Of a stretch of 26,828 bases of DNA, positions 3,714 through 25,602 are shown one piece after another. A model generated the notes under the pieces. The model was not told where the DNA came from, ran no database searches, and saw only the letters and a program-made list of their open reading frames with translations. Position 1 is the stretch's first letter; every line of letters begins with the position of its first letter. Origin of the DNA: a virus (taxonomy: Duplodnaviria > Caudoviricetes); the IMG/VR virus record IMGVR_UViG_3300037674_000278, positions 1-26,828 of that record; one strand, written 5' to 3'. Position numbers and translations under genes: made by a program.

Positions 3714-5348
3714 TCAATGTCCTTTTCTGGTTACGTTATGCCACACCGTACCATATTCATCTATATTCTTCTCCGGTTCCGGATCATTTATACCGTCATC
3801 TACAAAACCGAAAGGCGCCATATCTTGCTCAATTAGGTTAGCCTGCTCTTCATATAGTTGTTGTCTAGCATTGGTATTAGTCATTTCTTTAAAGAACGTC
3901 TGGTTGGATAACCAACCAAATACTACTAAACACATCATAAGGTCATCATTACAACCCTCCTCTGCCATCCAGGAGTTACCACGCCTACTAAAAGTTGACA
4001 TTTCTTCTACTATCTGAAAATCTGTAAGTAATAATTTATCTGCTTCAATCAATGTTTTAATATTAGAACAACCTATTTTTTTAATTTGTTTGGTCATCCT
4101 AACACCCATTGAGGAACCTCTAGCACTATAACCTACACCTAATACCTGACCTGCTCTACCTCTTTGAGTAGTCATAAGAATATTATCATACTCTAATTCA
4201 AAATGCATTGCCTCAGCAATTTGTTGGCCAAGGTCATTTACTTCACAAAGTATATGAGCGTGATTATATGCCTTACAAGCCTTGTCTATAATATGTGGAA
4301 AAGTTATAGGTTTAATTTCATTATTTTTATATTTTGCAACCACCTTATAAGGCATTTTGGTTACATCAACTATAATAAAAGCAGAGTAATCTTTTTCAAC
4401 TCCTCTAGCAACATCCACCGTACACACATAAGTCCTATTTTTTGTAGGTCTTTCATATACGTCCAAACCACCAGATGATTCAATTGGATTGACCAATGGT
4501 ATTGCTTTAATTTTTGTTGGTGAAATTAAAGTATCTACTGAACCTAAAAACTCACACTCAAACTCCTGCTGGAATTGTTCAGGTGATGTATTTCTTATTG
4601 TCTCTTCTTTCCATTTTTCGTCTCTACCAGGCACTTCACTCCAATGTACCTCTATTGGTGTATAATCATTTCTTTTATTTACACTATCTGTCCATAATTT
4701 ATAGTACATATTCATTCCGTGTGGAGTAGAAACAATAATCATTTTTGTTGTTTTACCAGATGAAATTGTGGGAAAAACTGAACTAAAAAATTGTTCGGCA
4801 ATATTAGCAGGTACGAAAGCAAACTCATCAAGAAATATTATATTATATGAACCACCTCGGATTGCACTTGAAGATGTAGCAGCCGCTACAATGGTTGATT
4901 TATTTTCTAATTCAATACTACCTTTGTTCCAATTTAAAACACCTTGTTGTAACCAAGGTGGTAAGTTTTCATAAGCAAGTTGTAATCTTCCCAATATATC
5001 TCTAGCAGTTGAAGATTTATTGGCAAGAATAGCCACGTTAGAATTAGGATTAAATATTGCATAATGTAATAGATAAGATATAATAGTAGTTGACTTACCT
5101 GATTGTCTAGGTAATTTTGCAATTGTAAATCTTTCATTATGAATCGTACCAACTATTTCTTTTTGAAAATCATACATTTGAAAAGGTACAAGACCTTCGT
5201 CAAGTGAAACTATCTTTAAATAGTTTTGTATAAAATAAATTGGATCTTTCTGGCACTTCTGAAATTCCAAAATGTTTTCTTTTGTGAACTCCTGAACTAC
5301 GCCAGCCTTTTTTAAATTAGGATTTCCTAGATATGCGTCTTTACTCAT
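3714..5348 (-). CDS. gp17: Terminase large subunit
   Basis: YLGNPNLKK N-terminus, Walker A RQSGKST, Walker B IIFLDEFAF, STPHGMN, nuclease motifs VDVARG and NDDLMM. Start moved from 5363 to the ATG at 5348 (ATGA overlap with the upstream stop). Confidence 0.98.
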   Translation of the reverse strand: MSKDAYLGNPNLKKAGVVQEFTKENILEFQKCQKDPIYFIQNYLKIVSLDEGLVPFQMYDFQKEIVGTIHNERFTIAKLPRQSGKSTTIISYLLHYAIFNPNSNVAILANKSSTARDILGRLQLAYENLPPWLQQGVLNWNKGSIELENKSTIVAAATSSSAIRGGSYNIIFLDEFAFVPANIAEQFFSSVFPTISSGKTTKMIIVSTPHGMNMYYKLWTDSVNKRNDYTPIEVHWSEVPGRDEKWKEETIRNTSPEQFQQEFECEFLGSVDTLISPTKIKAIPLVNPIESSGGLDVYERPTKNRTYVCTVDVARGVEKDYSAFIIVDVTKMPYKVVAKYKNNEIKPITFPHIIDKACKAYNHAHILCEVNDLGQQIAEAMHFELEYDNILMTTQRGRAGQVLGVGYSARGSSMGVRMTKQIKKIGCSNIKTLIEADKLLLTDFQIVEEMSTFSRRGNSWMAEEGCNDDLMMCLVVFGWLSNQTFFKEMTNTNARQQLYEEQANLIEQDMAPFGFVDDGINDPEPEKNIDEYGTVWHNVTRKGH

Positions 5349-5947
5349 TGTTTTGTATCCCAAAAATTAAAATTTATTACTTCTCTAAATGGATGGTCTT
5401 TTGGATGGTTACCACTATGCATAATATTAGGCCTCATATAAACGGCTCTACCTTTTTTAAATGGGATTCTTTCTATTTCATTATTATCATCATCAAATAA
5501 AACCGTGTCTCCATCGGAATTATTTAGGTGTACTATACAAATTTTCAAGTGTGCTTTCTCTTCAGGTTCTACATCACAATGAGGAGTATTATAACCTCCT
5601 TCAATAATTTTTTCTGATTTAAGTTGTAAATTTAGTTTTACTCTATATGATTTTACTATTCCTAAATCTTCTGCAATAGGTCCTACTATTCTATTCACAT
5701 ATGGAGAAACAATTTTGGCGTGACCAACCAACATATGAAAAAATTGTATGTCTTCATACATCTTTGGATATTCCATTCTAATTGGTTGAGCGTCAATAGA
5801 AATACCAGGTTTAAATACCGTACCATAAGAGGCAAGAAACCAAGGAAAGTCATCATTATGAATTGTGGTATATTCAATAGCTTTAAGTCTCTTATCGTCT
5901 ATTATACCATCTTTGACAATAAATTTGTCTTTAGATAAATCAATCAT
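5345..5947 (-). CDS. Putative 2OG-Fe(II) oxygenase-like protein
   Basis: FPWF N-terminal motif, PHCD (HxD), LNNSDGDT, KGRAV...MHSG (distal His), R.VINFNF (2OG-binding Arg). Confidence 0.75.
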   Translation of the reverse strand: MIDLSKDKFIVKDGIIDDKRLKAIEYTTIHNDDFPWFLASYGTVFKPGISIDAQPIRMEYPKMYEDIQFFHMLVGHAKIVSPYVNRIVGPIAEDLGIVKSYRVKLNLQLKSEKIIEGGYNTPHCDVEPEEKAHLKICIVHLNNSDGDTVLFDDDNNEIERIPFKKGRAVYMRPNIMHSGNHPKDHPFREVINFNFWDTKQ

Positions 5948-7004
5948 TGCCTAATGTTTTTTCCTCTCTAAATTCTGGACGTAATTTATGTAAATCTTTT
6001 CTATGCGTTGTCATATGTTTTTCTATAAACACATCATTATTTTCTCTATCTTTAATTCTAACCATAGGTACTCTATTTTTTTCAATCTCAACGTCTCTTA
6101 CAAAAAGGGTCATTGTTAATCTAGATTCTTCTGGTGAGTTCATTACATAATTATTTAATCTATGATGATTTTGTGCGTCATAACCAACAAAACGATTATA
6201 AACATTTTTTATATTTACCGTCTCTTCAAATCTTTCGTGAAATTTTTTATGTTCTTCTCTATACTCTTCATCTCCAACTTCAGCGGCTGCTATTCTTTTT
6301 TGATAAACTCCAATGCCTTCTCTTGTTTCACCACTTGAATTCTTTTCTTTATGCCATTGTTCTCTAAATTGTTTATGATTGTTGTAAGCTTCCTCTGTAT
6401 ATGCACCTTGCGTGGCCATATAGTTAGCACAATCTTTACCCCTATAAAACGTTCCATCTTTAAAATATCTCCAAGGATAAAATCCCATTCTACGACCATA
6501 TTTTAAAAAATTACTTTTGTCTGTTGGTTTCATTCTAAACAAAGAAGTTCCAGAATCAAGTCTTGCATTAGGATTTAAATAAACTAAACCAGCAAAATGT
6601 ACATCACTATCTTGGTGTACCCAACCTTGATTCATTATATCATCTGGATTATTATTGTAAGCAGGTATTTCGTGGAAGTAAATATTACTAAATCCCCATT
6701 GGACATTTTGTCTACCTAAATCAAAGTAGGCTGAAAAAACTTTAAGTAATATTTGTTGTGCTAATTGTTGGTCTATTTCGTGAAGAGGTGGTGTTCTAAT
6801 ACCAGGCCATTTTGAATCAGGCGATGGTCCTTTTGGTAGACTTAATGCATAATCTCTAATTATATCCGGATTATCAAAAAAATTATCAACAATAAATGGA
6901 AAAAATTGTGTGTTATCGTCTGGCATATCTGGTGCTACCCAGCTGCCACCACCATTTTTATCTAGTTTTATTTTTGTCTGTTTCTGGTCTAACGTTTCGT
7001 TCAT
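5940..7004 (-). CDS. Putative 2OG-Fe(II) oxygenase-like protein (DUF6445-like)
   Basis: IVDNFFDNPD.IR.YAL, WPG.RT, WVHQD (HxD), AGLVYLNP..SGTSLF, VYNR...YD...HH, RLT..LF. ATG at 7004 preferred over GTG at 7013 because of a GGTGA SD. Confidence 0.72.
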   Translation of the reverse strand: MNETLDQKQTKIKLDKNGGGSWVAPDMPDDNTQFFPFIVDNFFDNPDIIRDYALSLPKGPSPDSKWPGIRTPPLHEIDQQLAQQILLKVFSAYFDLGRQNVQWGFSNIYFHEIPAYNNNPDDIMNQGWVHQDSDVHFAGLVYLNPNARLDSGTSLFRMKPTDKSNFLKYGRRMGFYPWRYFKDGTFYRGKDCANYMATQGAYTEEAYNNHKQFREQWHKEKNSSGETREGIGVYQKRIAAAEVGDEEYREEHKKFHERFEETVNIKNVYNRFVGYDAQNHHRLNNYVMNSPEESRLTMTLFVRDVEIEKNRVPMVRIKDRENNDVFIEKHMTTHRKDLHKLRPEFREEKTLGND

Positions 7005-7395
7005 TCTTTTCACCTTTTAACATTTTTTGTAGCTCTGCTGTAGAACCTACGAATAAAGCATTTTTAATAGTAGCGTTAGTTTTATTTGGAACGTCTTTTA
7101 AATCTCTTAATTTCTTTTGTAAGTCTTGTAATTTATCAACCGTTTCGCCAACATTTTTAATTAATATTCCTGCCACTTCGTAAGCTCGTGGGTGTTGCCC
7201 CTCTTGAGCGATTTCTAAAATACCATCAATAGCTTTTTGTCCACGATCTATTAAACTATAATAATTTTCTCTACTATAATCGTGGTCACTATCTACTTGA
7301 TTTTCTTTTTCTATTGGTACAGGAGGTTCCTTTTTTACTTCTGGTAATGTTGAAACTCCTAATATTTCAGACATCTTATCTTCTAATTTACCCAT
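6958..7395 (-). CDS. gp16: Terminase small subunit
   Basis: DHDYSRENYYSLI..GQ.AI.GIL, HPRAYEVAG.LIK.V and NALFVGSTAELQKML motifs; lies downstream of gp15. Confidence 0.95.
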   Translation of the reverse strand: MGKLEDKMSEILGVSTLPEVKKEPPVPIEKENQVDSDHDYSRENYYSLIDRGQKAIDGILEIAQEGQHPRAYEVAGILIKNVGETVDKLQDLQKKLRDLKDVPNKTNATIKNALFVGSTAELQKMLKGEKNERNVRPETDKNKTR

Positions 7396-9838: not shown

Positions 9839-10519
9839 TTAAGTTATCTTCGGCCAAAGATTGTTTTCATTGAAGATTTTTACGTCTTCCTCTGGTAAAC
9901 CTAATGATAACATAACCTTTGGAGTATGTGGATTCTGTGCCTGGTGTTCACAATAGAAATTCTGAGCCCTAATCACATCTTCTTTCTTTGAATCGGAGTT
10001 GTAATGACTAATCTTATCCAAATAACTATTCAAATTACTTACTGCCAATTCACATATCTGGTTTAATTCTTTAAACTCTCTAATATTAGCAGCCGCTATC
10101 ATACCTTTACTAAAAATTTCCTTTGCCCAATCAGGCAATTCTCTTGCTTTAGTTGGTTTAAACCACTTGGTTTCTTCTATGAAATACTTTGTTAATGGGT
10201 GTTCTTTTAATAATAATGGACTGAAATCGTGAAAACAACCTGTTACCTTATTCTTACCTGCAATAACATCAAATCCATAAATTGGTCCACCATTCTCTAA
10301 CATTGGAAATAAACATACGTGTGCCATCCAAAGACCTTTAGTTTCTCTGGCGTCCACTACATCTATGTGAGCACGTCTAACACTCATATTAGACCAAGTA
10401 CGATTCGTCCAACCTGGTTTATTAAATTTTTCCATACCAGGTTCTTTATACTCTGTACAAGTTCTATCTAATACTTCTATAATATCTTTTTCTAATCTAA
10501 TTAGTCTGTCCCAAATCAT
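9839..10519 (-). CDS. pcyX: Ferredoxin-dependent bilin reductase, PcyX type
   Basis: RRAHIDVVD, LWMAHVCLFP, PIYGFDVI.G, HDFSP, R.LP.WA..IFS and YC..Q..NPHT motifs. His67/Asp84 have the 17-residue spacing of PcyA His88/Asp105, and Asp53 appears to replace PcyA Glu76, as I recall for PcyX. Directly downstream of heme oxygenase. Start moved to ATG 10519 (GGAGA SD). Confidence 0.88.
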   Translation of the reverse strand: MIWDRLIRLEKDIIEVLDRTCTEYKEPGMEKFNKPGWTNRTWSNMSVRRAHIDVVDARETKGLWMAHVCLFPMLENGGPIYGFDVIAGKNKVTGCFHDFSPLLLKEHPLTKYFIEETKWFKPTKARELPDWAKEIFSKGMIAAANIREFKELNQICELAVSNLNSYLDKISHYNSDSKKEDVIRAQNFYCEHQAQNPHTPKVMLSLGLPEEDVKIFNENNLWPKIT

Positions 10520-11072
10520 ACATTTCTCCAAATAATCTTGTTGCGCTATCAAAACAATAATTAGCCTCTGCTACTATATTAACTTGATATACATTTAAAT
10601 AGTTATTAACAATTTCTCTCACAATTCTTTTATATTCTTTTACCTGATTATGTTTAAACTTATAATATCTATTAGGTCCTGGTGTCTTTCTCATAATCAT
10701 TTGACCACCAGATAAATCTCCTAAATGCCTAACATAGATATGTGCATATAATTTTTCTGCGTCATCCATTATTGCGTCAAGGTGTTTAATATAATCTTTT
10801 GTACTTTCAGTTATAGCAGGTGGTTCTTTACCTTTCCATAATGTTTTATAATCATAATGCAATGCTTCTGCTCTTTGCAATCCTGGTGTTTGATTAAACA
10901 AAGAATTGTGCATACCATATTTTTCTAGTGTTGAATAACATTGTAGTTGATTATAAAGATAAGTAGCATACAATTGTTCATCAATCTCACCTGACATTAA
11001 TATCTTTACAAAGGCTTGTCTTTCAGCATTCTTATGTTTCTCATAAGTTAAATCTTTTATATCATATATCAT
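10497..11072 (-). CDS. hemO: Heme oxygenase (biliverdin-forming)
   Basis: Proximal His in T.EKH.NAE, distal-helix motif AHIYVRHLGDLSGGQ, C-terminal EA..CFD....LF; overlaps the bilin reductase gene. Confidence 0.93.
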   Translation of the reverse strand: MIYDIKDLTYEKHKNAERQAFVKILMSGEIDEQLYATYLYNQLQCYSTLEKYGMHNSLFNQTPGLQRAEALHYDYKTLWKGKEPPAITESTKDYIKHLDAIMDDAEKLYAHIYVRHLGDLSGGQMIMRKTPGPNRYYKFKHNQVKEYKRIVREIVNNYLNVYQVNIVAEANYCFDSATRLFGEMYDLGQTN

Positions 11073-11893
11073 TTATTATATTTTCCTGTCCATACTTTAT
11101 TTCGTGTTTCTAAATCGGTGCTATCACCTTTACCCTCCAAACCAATTTGGTTTCTAACGTGTTCAGCTAATGCTTGTTCATAGTTGTCCACATATCTAGG
11201 GTCATAAGTTATTTGTTCTCCCTTGGCAACTCCTTCTTTTTCCATATCTTCATACGTTGGTAAATCGTGTATGTTAGTTGTATGTAATAACATATCAAAC
11301 GCTATACTAATTCTATCTTCTTTTGTTTCATTACACTCAACACTATGTTTCATATGCGAAGGCATAACTATCATTTTTCCAGGTTTAGGTGTAAGCATAA
11401 ATCTTAAACTATTCATTGAATTATAATTAAAGTTATCTCTATTTGCCCAATAAAATCTTTTCATTTCTTGTCTCATATCTGGAGACTCTACAGATAATTG
11501 ACCAGAGTTTTCATTTCCTTTAACATAATATACAGCAGAGAAATCGGAGTGTACGTGTTGATGTATAGTATTATAATGTCCAGGTGCGCTAATATTAAAC
11601 CATAATTCTCCAATACTTAAAGAATATTTTGATTTTAATCCATATTGATCAACATAATTCTCAACTTCTGGCATAACCATTTGGAAAAATTTATCTATAA
11701 CCATTGGTGGTGTAGCAAGATTAATTAACTTACTTTGAAATCCACCTCTATTAGTTAAATTTCTTCCTTGAGATTTATTTTTAAGTTCGTAAGCATAATC
11801 TTCCAATTGTTTATTTAATTCTCCAAAGTCTTCGGAAAAATCAAATAGACCTGCAATCGTTGAAAATATTGTTTTTGTTTCTGTTTTAATCAT
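11069..11893 (-). CDS. Putative 2OG-Fe(II) oxygenase, TIGR02466-like, with C-terminal extension
   Basis: GGFQS, WFNI...G.YN.IHQH...FSAVYYV, P..G..IVMPS.M.H.V..N, RISIAFD. Confidence 0.8.
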   Translation of the reverse strand: MIKTETKTIFSTIAGLFDFSEDFGELNKQLEDYAYELKNKSQGRNLTNRGGFQSKLINLATPPMVIDKFFQMVMPEVENYVDQYGLKSKYSLSIGELWFNISAPGHYNTIHQHVHSDFSAVYYVKGNENSGQLSVESPDMRQEMKRFYWANRDNFNYNSMNSLRFMLTPKPGKMIVMPSHMKHSVECNETKEDRISIAFDMLLHTTNIHDLPTYEDMEKEGVAKGEQITYDPRYVDNYEQALAEHVRNQIGLEGKGDSTDLETRNKVWTGKYNK

Positions 11894-12527
11894 CTAGGTA
11901 TTTTGTTTCTACGTCTCCAAACTGCTTAACCAAGTCTTCATATTTAAATTGATACCAACCTGTTGTTATATACTTATGTTCAGTTGGAGATACTATTCCT
12001 TTATGCATATGTGTCCAATCTGTAGGCCAAAAAACGGTCAAACCTTTCTCTGGTTTAATTTTTACTCCTTGAATCGGCCACTCTGTTTCACCACCATCAT
12101 TGACCGTATTTAAATAGGTCATAAAGGTTAACATTCTCTGACCGTGAGCATACATATCTCTTTCATTATGTAATATAAAATATCCACCACCTGGTTTATA
12201 ATGTTGTATGTTCATTGGTGCAACTATTCCCCAAGGTCCATAATGGTCTCTTGGTATCTTATATTTATTTTGCCATTGAAGACAAGCTTTCTGTAATTCT
12301 TTAAAATAATCTCTTACTGCAAAATCTCTTTGAGCTTCTTCCTGTGTTACCAATAAATCAGTTGAATCTTTTAATTTTTTCTGTACTTTTCCTGGACCCA
12401 ATTTACCCACAAATTTACCAGGTGTTCTTTCATAGTACGTTATCATTCTATCACATATACTTTCAGACATATAATAACCATCTATAAAAAGATTCTTCTC
12501 TTGATTTATTTTATGTTCTCTCATCAT
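11886..12527 (-). CDS. 2OG-Fe(II) oxygenase, prolyl-4-hydroxylase-like
   Basis: K.STD, NIQHYKPG.GY...HNE, R.L.FMTYLN.V..GGETE, P.KG..VFWP..WTH.H.G, KYI.TGW. Confidence 0.88.
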   Translation of the reverse strand: MMREHKINQEKNLFIDGYYMSESICDRMITYYERTPGKFVGKLGPGKVQKKLKDSTDLLVTQEEAQRDFAVRDYFKELQKACLQWQNKYKIPRDHYGPWGIVAPMNIQHYKPGGGYFILHNERDMYAHGQRMLTFMTYLNTVNDGGETEWPIQGVKIKPEKGLTVFWPTDWTHMHKGIVSPTEHKYITTGWYQFKYEDLVKQFGDVETKYLDD

Positions 12528-13060
12528 TGTGCTACAGAACTTAACCTAGGTTCCCAATTTACATTTAATACTAATCTATATTTTTTATCTGTTTGAGTTA
12601 ATACTCTATGAGCCGTATCTTCTTCATCACTATCAAATATTACAGCTCTGTTTGCCACACAATTTACAATTTTTCCATTTTTAAATTCAGTACCACCATT
12701 ACAAGTATTATAATAATATATTAATACTTTATGGTCAAAAGATTGGTCTACGTGGTAACCAGATTTTAATTGTTTTCCGAAATTAGGACTAAAATTAGTA
12801 TCAGCTCTTATAATAGTTTGTTCTTTTAATTTTATATTTAAAGAGTCTAGTATAGGAACAACCATTTCAAAAAAGAATTTACTAGCTATTTCACCTCTAT
12901 TATAAACATACTTATGGGTAAAACAATAAATTCCTTTATCATCATCTCCTTCAGGTCCTTTTAGATATGGTTGATACTCCCATAAAAACCTAGAAGAGGT
13001 CATATTTTGGACAATATTATCCAATACTTCTGGCTCTAAAACATCATCAATAATTTCCAC
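12524..13060 (-). CDS. Putative 2OG-Fe(II) oxygenase-like protein
   Basis: IIDD.L, YHVD (HxD), YYNTCNGGT.F, ANRAVIFD, H...TQTD...R.VLN.N; GTG start with GGAGG SD; paralog of 14667-15353. Confidence 0.78.
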   Translation of the reverse strand: MEIIDDVLEPEVLDNIVQNMTSSRFLWEYQPYLKGPEGDDDKGIYCFTHKYVYNRGEIASKFFFEMVVPILDSLNIKLKEQTIIRADTNFSPNFGKQLKSGYHVDQSFDHKVLIYYYNTCNGGTEFKNGKIVNCVANRAVIFDSDEEDTAHRVLTQTDKKYRLVLNVNWEPRLSSVAQ

Positions 13061-13093
13061 AAGTTTCCTCCCAATTAGATTCCGATTCCGAGA

Positions 13094-14692
13094 TTATTCT
13101 TCATCTTGGTACCATTTATCTTTTAAAAAATTATACGTGGACTTTCCCTTTTCAGCTTCTAGTTTCCAATTTAATTTTCTAGCATCCATTCTGTTTAACG
13201 TTTCCATCCATCTTTGTTTATAAAAATTTATATCACCTTGACCAGTTTGTAATCGTTGTCTCATCCAACCCCAAGGCTGCCAATTCATACCAACACCAAT
13301 ACAATTCATTCCTTCTGTATTATCCCACCTACCGGCATCCCAAAATTGTTGCCATTTTGCTTTCCAATAATTTGTTCCGTGTGCGTCTGGTAATGGATCT
13401 TCTTCCATCCAATCTCTTGCCTGTATATCTTGCCAATATTTTGTATCGTCTCTAACACTTAACGCATAATGGCAGGTAACAAAACGAGAGAATATATCAA
13501 ATATTCTGCAACATTGATAATTGACATTAGCTCTATCTAAACTAGTTGCATAAGGCATTCTTGATTCCATTTGAGAAGTAAAGTAATTTAAAAATTCGTG
13601 TACAGAATATAATCCATTACTCTCTAATGGTTCTATAAATCCTGCTGATAGTCCTATTGCAAGAACATTTTTAACCCATATTCTCTTATGTCTACCAACA
13701 CGCATACCTATTTTTCTGTATTCATAATTTTCGGTGTCTGTATAACCTCTTGATTTTAAATGTTCTTTAAATTCTTTTAATGCGTCTTCATCACTAACGT
13801 ACTTGTCTGAAAATACATAGCCTGTTCCCCACCTAGACCATAAAGGTATTTCCCATACCCAACCATTACCTAATGCAAAACAATTTGTATAAGAACAAAT
13901 TTCCTTTTTCTTATCTTTATAAGGTATTCGTGTCGCCCAAGCTTTATTGTTCGGCAACATAGGAGAGAAATCTATAAAAGGTTCCTTTAATGCTTTATCT
14001 ATTAGTAATGCTTTAAAACCTGTGCAGTCAACAAATAAGTCTGCCTCAATTTTTGAACCATCATCTACAAGTAAATGATCAATATATCCATTTTCATCTA
14101 AAGGAGTTTCTTTTACTTCTTTTAATATATGTGTAAATCTTTCATTAGGAATACATACATTATTTTTTAACCATTGACCAAATTTAGTTGCGTCAAAGTG
14201 TAATGCTTTATCTGATTCGTATTTGAAATTTGGAAATGTTTCTGTTAAAACATTTGCATTAACCATAGCCATTTGTGGGTAATAACAATCTGCAAAATCT
14301 GTAACCGGTGTTTCTGGATATAAATGTTTTTTCCAGAACCAATCATTATTTAAATTCGGCATTTGGGTTACATCTAAAGCCCCAAAAGGGTAATGAAATC
14401 CTCCATCACCTTTTTTATAAAAATTTTCAAATCTAATACTTAATTTAATAGTAGCATCCGTCTCCTTCATAAAAGGTAAAGTTCTATTTAAACCTTGTAT
14501 CTCCAACCAATGACTTATTCCACCAATGGTACTTTCACCAACACCTACCGTTGGATGATTTGGACTTTCTACTAGTGTGATTTTTGCTTTTGTTGTATTT
14601 AAAAAATGTGTCGCTGACATCCAGCCAGCAGAACCACCACCTACGATAACTATGTTATCAATTTTATTATATAGTTTCTTTGTTTCCATCAT
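13094..14692 (-). CDS. Flavin-dependent halogenase (tryptophan halogenase/PrnA family)
   Basis: GGGSAG FAD motif, VGVGEST, catalytic-Lys position ATIK83, DCTGF, WVWEIP (WxWxIP), FIEPLESNG. Confidence 0.92.
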   Translation of the reverse strand: MMETKKLYNKIDNIVIVGGGSAGWMSATHFLNTTKAKITLVESPNHPTVGVGESTIGGISHWLEIQGLNRTLPFMKETDATIKLSIRFENFYKKGDGGFHYPFGALDVTQMPNLNNDWFWKKHLYPETPVTDFADCYYPQMAMVNANVLTETFPNFKYESDKALHFDATKFGQWLKNNVCIPNERFTHILKEVKETPLDENGYIDHLLVDDGSKIEADLFVDCTGFKALLIDKALKEPFIDFSPMLPNNKAWATRIPYKDKKKEICSYTNCFALGNGWVWEIPLWSRWGTGYVFSDKYVSDEDALKEFKEHLKSRGYTDTENYEYRKIGMRVGRHKRIWVKNVLAIGLSAGFIEPLESNGLYSVHEFLNYFTSQMESRMPYATSLDRANVNYQCCRIFDIFSRFVTCHYALSVRDDTKYWQDIQARDWMEEDPLPDAHGTNYWKAKWQQFWDAGRWDNTEGMNCIGVGMNWQPWGWMRQRLQTGQGDINFYKQRWMETLNRMDARKLNWKLEAEKGKSTYNFLKDKWYQDEE

Positions 14693-15353
14693 AATTCCAC
14701 CTTAAATTCATATTCCAGATAACTCTTCGATCCACATCTGTTTGTGTTTCTGCCCAATGTCTTAATCGTCCATCAAAAATAACACATCTATTTGCTACTG
14801 CGTCAACTTTTTGTGTAGTACCATCCATTCTTTCAATGTAAGTAGGACCATTACAAGTATTACAATATAGTATTGCTGAACAAAAATTAAATCTTCCTGT
14901 TTTTTTCGTCTCACCAAATTTAGCTCTAGTGTCTTCATAAAAATCTGTATGTTTAACTAATTCATATTTGGCACCACGATTGGTATATGAGTTTAGTTTC
15001 ACCTTTAACATATATTCAGGTGGATATTTTCCTTTAACAGGTATACCTTTATTTTTAAATTCATCCATTACACATTCAAAGAACGGCCAAAATTGAGATT
15101 GTTCTCTATGTTCTGTACCAACCCAAACCACGTGAGTATGCATAAAGGTACCTAATAAGGCACCTCTCTTTTTTGCGTCTTCTACCAATTCTTTTGTATC
15201 GGGAGCGTCTGCGTCTTCTGTATTGTAGTCTGTATCTGTCCAGTACCAAGGAAAGCCGGCACTTAAAATGTTTTCGTTAAGTCTATCAAAGGTTGTTTGT
15301 GGTACAAAGTTATCAATTATTTTAATCCAACCATCAGTATATTCATTCTGCAT
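14667..15353 (-). CDS. Putative 2OG-Fe(II) oxygenase-like protein
   Basis: IIDNF, FPWYW, KHTD (HxD), LYCNTCNGPT, ANRCVIFDG...H..TQTD..RR...N.N. Confidence 0.78.
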   Translation of the reverse strand: MQNEYTDGWIKIIDNFVPQTTFDRLNENILSAGFPWYWTDTDYNTEDADAPDTKELVEDAKKRGALLGTFMHTHVVWVGTEHREQSQFWPFFECVMDEFKNKGIPVKGKYPPEYMLKVKLNSYTNRGAKYELVKHTDFYEDTRAKFGETKKTGRFNFCSAILYCNTCNGPTYIERMDGTTQKVDAVANRCVIFDGRLRHWAETQTDVDRRVIWNMNLRWNYDGNKETI

Positions 15354-21297: not shown

Positions 21298-24200
21298 TTA
21301 TACGTTTTCAGTTAATTTCCAACCGTAAGAAGCGCCAGTATAAACTATACCAACGGCAGCGTTATCAGTTGTAACCGTAAAGTCTTGATTTAATCCCATA
21401 ATTTTATTACCGTTTCTTTGTACGGTTAAACCTGCTGTTGCAAAGTTATCAACTAAATCTAAAAATCTCATTTCATCACCTACACTTGGACTTGCCGGTA
21501 ATTGAATTATAGCAGTACCACCACTTGTATCTACAAATGATCTTTGGCCTGCAACTACTGATAATACGGTTGAACCGTCACCTGTAATTGAATCCCAAGG
21601 TAAGTAACCACCAAGACCACCCCATTGAGAACCGTTATAACCTTCCCAAGAAGACTTGTCTGTGTTAAATCTTATTGCACCGGAGAATAAATCTACTCCT
21701 GCGTTTGATGGTCTTTCAGCTGTTGATCCTGTTGGAGGAACCATTGAGCCAATTCCCATTTTATCTCTTGTTAAATATCCTACAATTGCTCTTTCTACTG
21801 GTACAGCTCTGTTTGAATCTCCTGCCATTGTTTCGTCTGTAGAAAATTCATTAATAGCAGCACCTAGTTGAGCACCAATAGTACCTAAAGATAATTCTGT
21901 TAATCCTGATAAATCAAAAGCGTCTGCATTCAATGTAGCAGTACCAGTTGATTGTTGTACTCTGAATAAGTTACCTACTCTAAAGTCACCTCGTTGGTCT
22001 GTTGAAGTATAATAAACACGACCACCATTTGTTTCTGTAACCTCATCTTCTTGTCTTGAAGGTTGAGTTGGATCAAAAGGATAGTTAGTAGTAGTAAAGT
22101 CACCAGTACCTATATCTAGGAAATCGTGACCTGTTAATCTTACGTTAGAAAATTTAATTGTTTGTGTCATTACCGTATCAGCTGGCGCACCATTAGTTGA
22201 AGCAATTTGTGGATTAATTTTAATCATAGCCGTTTGATTAGCTGTATCTTCGTCTGACACTTGCGTAATTCTGTAATAAGTGTTATCGCCTGCGATTTGT
22301 AAGTTACCACCAACATATACTACACCAGTTGAAGCTAATGTATTGTCTGTTGTTTTAATTGGTATTAAGTAACCTGAAATTCCTGCGTTAGCAACCGTAG
22401 AATCTCCAAATGCCGAGTCTAAAGTAAATACGTATGTACTTGTATCTAGTTTAACAACATCACAAATTTCTCCCATTGTGAAATGATCTCCGCCTGTAAA
22501 GTTTTCTACATAAAGTTTTGTAGCACTTGTTTGTAAGTGGAATATTGTCGCTGATACACCAGAAGTTCGGCCTGTTATTACATCACCAATTCCAAACATA
22601 TTTTCATCATTTGAACCACCAACAATTGATAGTTTATTAAATTCTACTACATCTCCTCTTACTTTAAATTGTTTAGGAGTTTCGTATTCAGAAGAACCAT
22701 CTGCCTCAGCACCCTTTTCACCATAAGAACTTGAGCAGTTTGCACCTCTTATAAACCCACCACCTGTAGCATAGAAAGCCTTGTCGCAATAGTACGTAAA
22801 GATTGATACACACTCAGCACGACCAGCATTTAAGCAATGGATTCCTCTACCATCTTCATTAATTTGTGTAAAGTCATTTTGTAGTGTTGAGAAATACCCT
22901 TTACCTTTTTGGTAATATACTCCGTGTTTATAGTGGACATTACCATCAACTTGCATACCTGTAGCGCCTACATTAACAGATGAACTATTTTGAATATAAG
23001 GTGAGAATAATATAACTGGATGTTCTGGATCTAAAGACATTACTGCCTGTTTTCCTGTTGCGCCTGCAACCGGTGTTCCATTTAATCCTTTAAATTGTAA
23101 ATTTCTAACGTTGTTCATATTATTTAATAAGAACATATTTGAAGCATTGCAATTTTCAACACTTGCAACCGTGAAAGTAATATCTTCACAACCACCAACC
23201 CAAGAACCAGAGATTGTAATTTTATCTCCTACTTGGTGATGATAACCACCGTGATAAATTGTTATTGAAGGAGCACTTGAACCGTCTGTAGTTATATCAA
23301 CTACACAACCTTCGCCAGCACCATCTGATTTAGATTGGTGAATATATTTGTAAGTACCTGCTGTACCTAATGTACCACCAGCTATTGTACCAATTGTAGC
23401 AATTTGTGTTCCTGTTCCTTCTGCTGGTTGAATTTTTGAACCTCTTAAAGTTGTTCCATAAACGGCACAACCTGGAGTGATTCGTAAAGGTAATTGTTCC
23501 TTAAACACACCTTGTTTAATGTGTAGAATATCACCAACGTTTGTACTTGCAACTTGGAAACTTAAATCTGCACCGCCACCAATTCCAGCAGCTGCAACGG
23601 TAATAACATCGCCTTCTGCGTAATCAGTACCACCGTCAATGATGTTTATATTATCATTTGTTGGTACCGTTGAAGCGTCTTTAGTAACCCTAACTGATAT
23701 GTCAGAGCCTCTAAATAATTTTCTAATATTTTTATTTGTCATTTGATTTCCATCCCACATTAAATCCATTTGTATAGCGTCTAGGAAATATGATAAATCT
23801 CTTTTACATTTTCCTCTTTGGTCATCATTATGGAATCCAGGATATGTTGTAGTGAACCACTTATCACATTCTTGGATAATAAATTCTTTGTTTTTAGCAA
23901 GGCATAATCTTGCGTCTGGATAATTTGTAGTTGATCCGTTTGCAACATCAGCGTCTATATTACCAAGACCATTTGCTACTACGTCAACTATATCATCAAA
24001 AATTGTAGCACATTTAGTTATTGCACCAGCTTCACCATTTGCGTTATGTAAAACTTGTTGTTCGTAAGTACTACCTAAAGAAGCGTCACCTGGACCTGGA
24101 TAAATGTGTGAACCTTGTACACACGTCATTTCAATATTTTTTAAGGTAACATAATCACCATCTGACATACCGTGAGCTGTTGTTAAACCAACGGTCATAA

Positions 24201-25602
24201 CTCCTGTACCGTGTACGAAATTTGCTGTACTAATATTGTAAGATGTTCCTGTAGCATTTACCGTTGCAACACCACCACTACCTACGTATGTGTGTGCTAT
24301 TGAAGATGTAGCTAAGGTAACATCAAAACCATTTGCTGTTGAATTTGAAATTTGGAAAGAAACTAGTGGTGATTGCCACATTGAGTTAGTTAAAATATAT
24401 GAACCAACTATTTCTTTTGCTTTATTATATAAAGCTTGTGTTTCTGTTTCAGCACCTGTTGAAGTAAATGTTGAAGATATACCAGTTGCAATATATGTTC
24501 CTGCAACACCACCAGTACCACCTGAAATTGTTTTAATATCTACAACATCATTTGTTGATAATTTTGTTAATGCGTATTTAATCGTTCTAAATGGAGCAGA
24601 AGCAGAACCGTCATTTGAATCTGCACCAGAGTTTGATACATAGTATTCGTTACCGCCTTCTGGAAATGACCAGAAAACATCCGTACCATCTGTAGTTAAG
24701 TTTGCACCTTTAGGACCTACTGGTAATCTATCTGTTTGTGAAGCAGAACGATAAAGTAAATCACCTCTTGTTGCTAATACTGCGTTTGAATCTCCTTGAG
24801 CAATAACTTCCCATTTAGCTGCGTCTGTTCCTGGAACAACGTTTAATACAGCATTTGATTTTGCAATGTAAGAACTTGAAACATAACCAACCGTATCACC
24901 TTTATTGTATGTAGTAGCGGCGTCATAAGTGCCTTGCCATTTCATACCTTCATTAATAACTTCCCATTTAGCTGCGTCTGTATGTGGTGTTTCGCCTGCT
25001 GATGTGTCTACCAAACAAACGTAAGACCAACCACCAAACTGCATTGTATCTCCAGTTTTGTATGCTGTAGCGGCATTGTAATCGCCTGTTGCTTTGAAAC
25101 CTGTTGTTAAAACGTCCCATTCAGTTGCTGAAGCTACTGGGGTTACGCCACTATGATTAGTAGTTGCTATGTAAGTATAACCACCGTAGGTTACAACGTC
25201 ACCATCTTGGTAAAATGTTGAATTGTCCCAAGAATCTTCCCATTGTAAGCCTTCGTTATATACCGTAAATTTTGATGTGTCTAGTGGATCTGGACTTGAT
25301 GTTGATGTGTGATGAGTTGTAGTTAAATATTGTTGTGAACCAAATTTAACAACATCATTTAATTTGTAAAAGGTATCGTTAGCGAATTCACCTTTGAACG
25401 CCATACCTTCGGTATGGAGTTGCCATTTTGAATTTGATAAATCAGTATAGAAATCAGGTTCAGTTCCACCTGATGTGTGATTTAATATACAAACATAAGT
25501 GTTTGCACCGAATTTTATAATGTCGTCAACAATATAAGCTGTTGAAGCGACCCAATCGCCTTTCCATTTAAACTTTAATCTACCTAATACGAAATCTGCC
25601 AT
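21298..25602 (-). CDS. Large virion structural/fibre protein with CBM-like repeats, beta-helix-like core and inserted phycobiliprotein-like domain
   Basis: Five W/Y-rich repeats; YYVS.SG.DSNDGS...PFRTI.YAL (DUF1565-like start of beta-helix proteins); G.TAERP...G.IRFNT....EGYNG..W fibre motif; C-terminal VDTSGG...LPASP.VGD domain; helical insert at about aa 385-632. Confidence 0.82.
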   Translation of the reverse strand: MADFVLGRLKFKWKGDWVASTAYIVDDIIKFGANTYVCILNHTSGGTEPDFYTDLSNSKWQLHTEGMAFKGEFANDTFYKLNDVVKFGSQQYLTTTHHTSTSSPDPLDTSKFTVYNEGLQWEDSWDNSTFYQDGDVVTYGGYTYIATTNHSGVTPVASATEWDVLTTGFKATGDYNAATAYKTGDTMQFGGWSYVCLVDTSAGETPHTDAAKWEVINEGMKWQGTYDAATTYNKGDTVGYVSSSYIAKSNAVLNVVPGTDAAKWEVIAQGDSNAVLATRGDLLYRSASQTDRLPVGPKGANLTTDGTDVFWSFPEGGNEYYVSNSGADSNDGSASAPFRTIKYALTKLSTNDVVDIKTISGGTGGVAGTYIATGISSTFTSTGAETETQALYNKAKEIVGSYILTNSMWQSPLVSFQISNSTANGFDVTLATSSIAHTYVGSGGVATVNATGTSYNISTANFVHGTGVMTVGLTTAHGMSDGDYVTLKNIEMTCVQGSHIYPGPGDASLGSTYEQQVLHNANGEAGAITKCATIFDDIVDVVANGLGNIDADVANGSTTNYPDARLCLAKNKEFIIQECDKWFTTTYPGFHNDDQRGKCKRDLSYFLDAIQMDLMWDGNQMTNKNIRKLFRGSDISVRVTKDASTVPTNDNINIIDGGTDYAEGDVITVAAAGIGGGADLSFQVASTNVGDILHIKQGVFKEQLPLRITPGCAVYGTTLRGSKIQPAEGTGTQIATIGTIAGGTLGTAGTYKYIHQSKSDGAGEGCVVDITTDGSSAPSITIYHGGYHHQVGDKITISGSWVGGCEDITFTVASVENCNASNMFLLNNMNNVRNLQFKGLNGTPVAGATGKQAVMSLDPEHPVILFSPYIQNSSSVNVGATGMQVDGNVHYKHGVYYQKGKGYFSTLQNDFTQINEDGRGIHCLNAGRAECVSIFTYYCDKAFYATGGGFIRGANCSSSYGEKGAEADGSSEYETPKQFKVRGDVVEFNKLSIVGGSNDENMFGIGDVITGRTSGVSATIFHLQTSATKLYVENFTGGDHFTMGEICDVVKLDTSTYVFTLDSAFGDSTVANAGISGYLIPIKTTDNTLASTGVVYVGGNLQIAGDNTYYRITQVSDEDTANQTAMIKINPQIASTNGAPADTVMTQTIKFSNVRLTGHDFLDIGTGDFTTTNYPFDPTQPSRQEDEVTETNGGRVYYTSTDQRGDFRVGNLFRVQQSTGTATLNADAFDLSGLTELSLGTIGAQLGAAINEFSTDETMAGDSNRAVPVERAIVGYLTRDKMGIGSMVPPTGSTAERPSNAGVDLFSGAIRFNTDKSSWEGYNGSQWGGLGGYLPWDSITGDGSTVLSVVAGQRSFVDTSGGTAIIQLPASPSVGDEMRFLDLVDNFATAGLTVQRNGNKIMGLNQDFTVTTDNAAVGIVYTGASYGWKLTENV
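24790..25566 (-). repeat. Five tandem ~51-aa CBM5/12-like repeats in the large protein
   Basis: Consensus W.G.W...T.Y..GDVV.YGG..Y.....H.S...P.....W.V..EG; exact 27-bp DNA repeat at 24802-24828 and 24955-24981 (153 bp apart). Confidence 0.85.

Follow-up and report, generated by a model that had tools for sequence, protein, structure and literature searches.

A 26,828-nucleotide stretch of DNA from a virus (Duplodnaviria; Caudoviricetes; IMG/VR record IMGVR_UViG_3300037674_000278), referred to here as the window, encodes a tail-fibre-type protein, P0001, in which we found one copy of a phycobiliprotein-related phage repeat. Position scores showed that the helices of this copy follow the order G-insert-H-A/B-E-F', a circular permutation with the cut in the F'-G loop, and the copy carries a Cys-x-Arg-Asp (CxRD) motif at Cys599 as a candidate site for bilin attachment. 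With no X/Y helices and a score under the Pfam cut-off it is not a canonical phycobiliprotein, but at its CxRD motif it probably behaves as such a protein does. In our estimate the chances are about even that the domain is a bilin-carrying accessory with a passive role, to whose Cys599 phycoerythrobilin from the phage enzyme PcyX would be joined with no lyase involved, and the particle of this virus may carry a pink bilin pigment. An initial annotation of the window had pointed to a permuted phycobiliprotein-like domain with an intact attachment motif; beyond this, we now find the domain to be a single member of a large family of tandem repeats, with a drifted F' helix and no obligate link to the genes hemO and pcyX.

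Helix order and relation to phycobiliproteins

Helices were placed with position scores derived from array units, leaving the window copy out, and each piece was compared with 200 shuffles. The pieces equivalent to helices G, H, A/B and E each scored above all of their shuffles (Table 1), helix G lying slightly below the 5th percentile of true units, and the F' piece scored no better than chance (2.3 bits, 98/200 shuffles). G and H lie upstream of A/B and E, in the permuted order that the initial annotation had read, and no second copy of any helix piece scored elsewhere in the P0001 chain. The usual array order is that of phycobiliproteins, with 185 of 285 runs beginning at A/B and 193 of 285 finishing at H. 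Other proteins contributed 282 runs, of which 18 begin at G and finish at F', and eight of these are single units without orphan halves (a single permuted unit is, for example, P0032 3130-3294). All 18 occupy one C-terminal site of a different fibre clade and probably represent one event, at a site other than that of the window copy; the same cut at a different fibre site provides independent support for the permutation.

The insertion site is empty in the orthologous fibres of Pelagibacter phage Mosig (EXVC030M) and L070, and the beta-rich module found in the G-H loop of the window copy stands alone at this site in the orthologues L109, L114, L128, L137 and L041. In array proteins this module often comes after G, and 4 of the 11 cases inspected had a clear H (at least 12 bits) further downstream. 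We infer that the permuted unit was excised from a tandem array in the G-to-F' register; such an F'-G cut would leave the new chain ends next to each other, a favourable arrangement for placing the unit in a loop.

Cys599 (codon 23806-23808), Arg601, Asp602 and Tyr605 are present as claimed earlier, and the gapless beta-subunit helical pattern described for the preceding segment fits phycoerythrin beta up to the PG dipeptide, the family being about 7 residues shorter in the next loop. When the window segment alone was compared with the PDB, the best E value was 0.52 and the two top matches were phycocyanin alpha, which is suggestive only; against Pfam PF00502 it reached an E value of 0.12 and 12.8 bits, under the cut-off of 22.2 bits. 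Family profiles gave the significance that the single segment lacks: with the profile of alignment A1, 33 of 34 PDB matches were phycobiliproteins (phycocyanin alpha; best E 0.004), and with that of alignment A3 phycobiliproteins filled all of the best 60 of 140 matches (best E 1.4e-5, phycoerythrin beta). PF00502 was matched by 5 of 24 family units (best E 0.0088), and precomputed matches to it exist for two short members of the family. A search of the ESM Atlas returned unnamed clusters only, under 0.9. These comparisons show that the family units are phycobiliprotein homologues.

A natural-order family unit (P0146, residues 398-545) was predicted as a single domain with a predicted local distance difference test score (pLDDT) of 92.9 and a predicted template modelling score (pTM) of 0.89. 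In VIA its best match was phycoerythrin beta (5aqd_M) with Z 16.0 and a root-mean-square deviation of 2.0 Å over 132 residues, followed by ApcE (14.7) and allophycocyanin (14.6), with non-bilin globins at 12.1 or below. Among the Foldseek matches listed, all were phycobiliprotein beta chains (probability 1.00, TM 0.71-0.74); the best E value was 5e-3, and none reached 0.001. Structural matches begin at chain residue 35-37, so that the modelled unit has a predicted globin core without X/Y helices, whose absence from the window copy had been noted before; there, H precedes A. The family thus shares with its closest PF00502 relatives, phycoerythrin beta and the ApcE bilin domain (4xxi), the predicted globin core A-H and a CxRD motif on helix E, and differs from the light-harvesting members of PF00502 by the missing X/Y helices, a shorter loop after helix B, a shortened F region, scores under the Pfam cut-off and an arrangement in tandem arrays in phage fibres; the window copy is additionally permuted and contains the beta insert. 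As a natural permutation without X/Y helices, it could serve as a compact framework on which fluorescent tags that use bilins are built.

Repeat family, cyanophage units and bilin genes

A search of 1.84 billion representatives yielded 582 proteins, many of them giant, with up to 32 matched stretches per protein, and all family counts given here rest on the best 150 of these 582. Repeat units are about 110-170 amino acids long. The initial annotation had left conservation in homologues to be checked; CRD was retained by 1490 of the 1594 repeats, a figure with some ascertainment bias because the search seed held the CxRD motif. Exactly one Cys is found in 825 of 1077 full units (Cys 0.7% overall), which rules out a family-wide disulfide within the unit.

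Among 50,697 phage records, cyanophages accounted for 58/59 and 131/132 carriers, the remaining one being a marine single-cell virus. The cultured carriers found are all cyanophages, whose hosts are bilin makers, a point in favour of a bilin link. Their fibre and baseplate repeats (phrog_5342, phrog_4527; S-PM2, Syn1, S-WAM2, S-H9-1) belong to the same family but have the natural order, several copies, a second Cys before helix H and cpeT nearby, none of which applies to the window copy. This second Cys, just before helix H, was present in 12 of 12 distinct helix-H-reaching units of four cultured cyanophages (for example L002:8022-8516, L003:8037-8522, L004:8013-8534 and L005:8013-8522) but in just 2 of 27 units from the uncultured loci covered. 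In the folded natural-order unit the second Cys is residue 126. Residue 145 of the model pairs with residue 184 of the chain, so that a helix H free of gaps would place the second Cys at 165; HMMER pairs it with a later Cys of phycoerythrin beta, in conflict with this structural end-point reading. A cited reference names Cys-165 of phycoerythrin beta in its title as the site served by CpeT. The gene cpeT lies 1.2-1.5 kb upstream of a repeat-bearing fibre gene, on the same strand, in all four cultured phages, which are syntenic relatives, and was found in 0 of 15 other records, mostly fragments. Phage CpeT may serve the phage's own fibre, and the second-Cys units are a candidate substrate for it in cultured phages. 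In the window contig there is neither a second Cys at the cyanophage position nor cpeT; Cys531 was considered as a second bilin site and rejected, as it is found 7 positions inside helix H, away from the cyanophage position.

The window carries hemO and pcyX adjoining the neck gene, 10 kb from the fibre gene. The same HemO/PcyX cassette (5owg) adjoins the neck gene in Mosig, but the window also encodes a candidate bilin acceptor of the phage's own, which is missing from Mosig: a local repeat profile found nothing in 40.7 kb of Mosig, fibre genes included. In PMC11480375, the PcyX enzyme class is reported to make phycoerythrobilin and the purpose of the phage HemO/PcyX cassette is called enigmatic. 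With a candidate acceptor encoded alongside the cassette, one answer to the question why phages of non-photosynthetic hosts make this pigment can be put to the test.

Proposed pigment binding and alternative roles

In the mechanism that we propose, the permuted repeat would sit in a loop of the fibre and fold back into a globin shape, and phage HemO and PcyX would make phycoerythrobilin during infection, to be bound through Cys599. The putative display of a monomeric bilin-binding globin on the particle had been proposed by the initial annotation. Thioether attachment without a lyase would follow the example of the CXRD-bearing globins BBAG-1 and BBAG-3, which bind bilins without lyases according to PMC10151467. 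They resemble the window domain, with which they were compared by description only, in the motif, in the non-antenna setting and in being encoded near genes for heme oxygenase and bilin reductase; in contrast, they are bacterial stand-alone proteins beside pre-PcyA. The weakest step is the last one, in which the pigment would be passive, absorbing light or oxidants, and optional. We favour such a role because phycoerythrobilin is not known to be photochromic or to photoisomerise at C15, and because most related fibres are without the domain. A chromophore-bearing virion protein would, if true, show the phycobiliprotein fold in a role new for it, and a literature search, in which subscription journals were poorly covered and supplements were outside the scope, returned no report of this domain in phage structural proteins.

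Several observations weigh against a pigment-carrying domain. Packaging of P0001 in the particle is presumed from annotation only. The AlphaFold model of the window copy speaks in favour, with confident helices at the places of G, H, A/B, E and F' (block pLDDT 80-95) and a pTM of 0.64 with 100 of 275 residues below pLDDT 50, which we read as one rigid helical body; the beta insert is unfolded for lack of alignment rows. As the alignment was supplied in the permuted register, the model speaks for compatibility and is no proof. With this model Foldseek gave no match at E ≤ 0.001 (best partial match 70 columns, 2.0 Å, phycoerythrin alpha) and the best VIA score was Z 5.6, equal to unrelated bundles. 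The phycobiliprotein fold claimed initially is supported by the predicted natural-order unit, and searches with the permuted model gave nothing clear. Such weak matches are expected if the searches follow chain order, and the permuted copy would likely close into a globin shape.

The window copy has also departed from the family at five conserved positions, near F' and where G begins (Ser604, Ile626, Leu629, Ala384 and Leu391), where the family has Gly in 78% (Ser604), Gly/Ala in 94% (Ile626) and Tyr in 98% (Leu629). The family might bind bilin while the window copy, though still able to fold, is drifting as a passenger with little or no binding and acts as a spacer in a modular fibre. The chance-level F', the lost Tyr, the orthologous fibres of hemO/pcyX relatives without the domain and the finding of a single homologue besides self for residues 375-645 fit this explanation, which we nevertheless consider unlikely, given that Cys599, Arg601, Asp602, Asp608, Asp613 and Asn619 are retained and that the near-identical copy L001 differs from window residues 512-633 by 9 silent and 2 replacement changes, both conservative (one pair, small numbers).

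Also, the tie of the repeat to bilin genes is loose. The domain occurs with hemO and a reductase on one contig in the window, G008, G016, G036 and G050, and with a reductase in G004. However, it was matched in only 3 of 28 records picked for bilin reductase, mostly fragments, with a loose first-pass match that may miss divergent copies; the complete or near-complete reductase records had none (Mosig), none (G001) and 8 repeats (G004). Among 27 repeat-positive contigs of at least 50 kb, chosen from 145 loci of a scan covering 7/64 parts and in 24 cases under 90% complete, one had hemO and reductase and two had cpeT. The repeat-bearing G064 (284 kb, 100% complete) has no hemO, reductase or cpeT, and the four cultured cyanophages, with 7-14 repeat matches each, have no hemO or reductase, so that bilin binding there fits only with pigment supplied by the host. 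On these counts an obligate link between repeat and hemO/pcyX was rejected, and since complete hemO/pcyX phages lack the repeat and repeat carriers lack these genes, the domain cannot account for hemO/pcyX in general.

This loose tie is one point in favour of a captured globin scaffold with a structural role or another ligand (host surface molecule, haem or metal), in which the Cys would serve an inter-chain disulfide or a metal site. The long arrays in giant proteins resemble building blocks, and some units have lost the Arg while keeping the Cys, giving Cys-x-Asp-Asp (L191:1249-1746 and L193:1570-2076 in G028 and G029; also L002:11586-12083); these units, which retain the second Cys and may have a different chemistry or ligand, count against the pigment-carrying reading too. 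That the scaffold explanation still appears improbable to us is due to the conserved residues being those of the bilin site, to the missing partner Cys in most units, to the restriction of cultured carriers to cyanophages and to the second Cys that their units add at the likely beta-165 position.

A light sensor in the fibre that gates adsorption has very little in its favour beyond P-HM1 (NC_015280) and P-HM2 (NC_015284), which carry the repeat in the gp7 baseplate wedge protein and, according to PMC6628666, adsorb only in the light and not in the dark. These are two related phages, which do not make a correlation, and the host of the window phage is likely a heterotroph. That phycoerythrobilin is not known to be photochromic also argues against a sensor. 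This pigment is the reported PcyX product (PMC11480375), and the BBAGs tested were photoinactive (PMC10151467).

A wider proposal, which we put forward as possible rather than probable, is that T4-like marine and freshwater phages build pigmented virions, in which fibre and baseplate proteins would hold covalent bilins on natural or permuted phycobiliprotein-derived domains. In hosts that lack bilins, SAR11 for instance, the pigment would come from phage HemO/PcyX, and cyanophage CpeT would load the second site on the phage's own fibres, not the host antenna.

Two other contigs with bilin genes carry the domain in a different form. G008 (L190:1501-2034), another hemO/reductase phage, has a lone natural-order domain in a 1597-residue fibre, a natural control for the permuted copy. 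On the hemO/pcyX contig G016 (L192:1474-2526), a 161-residue frame opens with a CxRD domain, that is, outside a virion protein, and is followed after one stop by an in-frame region that is nitroreductase-like by eye.

Feature coordinates and gene neighbourhood

The 26.8-kb contig belongs to a marine, uncultured T4-like phage close to Mosig. Its genes, all on the minus strand, include tail tube, sheath, terminase, neck genes, oxygenases and fibres, and the neck protein shares 79% identity with its Mosig counterpart, which makes a SAR11-type host likely. P0001 has CBM5/12-like repeats N-terminally, followed by a beta-rich body.

Table 1. Positions in the window of the fibre gene, the pieces of its repeat copy and the candidate pigment genes (aa, amino acids).
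Feature	Position	Strand	Evidence
Host gene P0001, 1434-aa tail-fibre-type protein	21298..25602	-	phrog_9851 tail fibre E 2.6e-205; PF02839; orthologue of Mosig_00063
Helix G equivalent, aa 382-405, placed first	24388..24459	-	13.4 bits, 0/200 shuffles; predicted helix aa 382-403, block pLDDT 83-92
Beta-rich FCCH-like fibre module, aa ~412-508, in G-H loop	24079..24369	-	PF16190 E 0.0028; alone at same site in orthologues
Helix H equivalent, aa 525-546	23965..24030	-	16.7 bits, 0/200 shuffles; predicted helix aa 525-544
Helices A/B, aa 563-590	23833..23916	-	23.8 bits, 0/200 shuffles; predicted helices aa 562-586
Helix E, aa 596-619	23746..23817	-	48.5 bits, 0/200 shuffles; aligned to phycocyanin alpha
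CxRD motif Cys599-Lys-Arg601-Asp602, candidate bilin attachment site	23797..23808	-	family C 96%, R 95%, D 98%
Helix F' equivalent, aa 619-632, drifted	23707..23748	-	predicted helix aa 620-631
Heme oxygenase hemO, candidate biliverdin source	10497..11072	-	PF01126 E 6.3e-21
Bilin reductase pcyX, candidate phycoerythrobilin source	9839..10552	-	PF05996 E 1.5e-14; PcyX 5owg E 4.8e-109 vs PcyA 3e-9

On either side of hemO/pcyX, at 5345-7013 and 11069-15353, the structural block contains several genes resembling 2-oxoglutarate (2OG)-Fe(II) oxygenases and one resembling a tryptophan halogenase; the cassette could alternatively serve to release iron, through HemO, for these enzymes. Between 15413 and 20995 there are three tandem pairs of a glycine-rich fibre-like gene of 456-466 codons (PF21722) with His- and Gly-rich tails, alternating with three phrog_7759 genes (149-166 aa).

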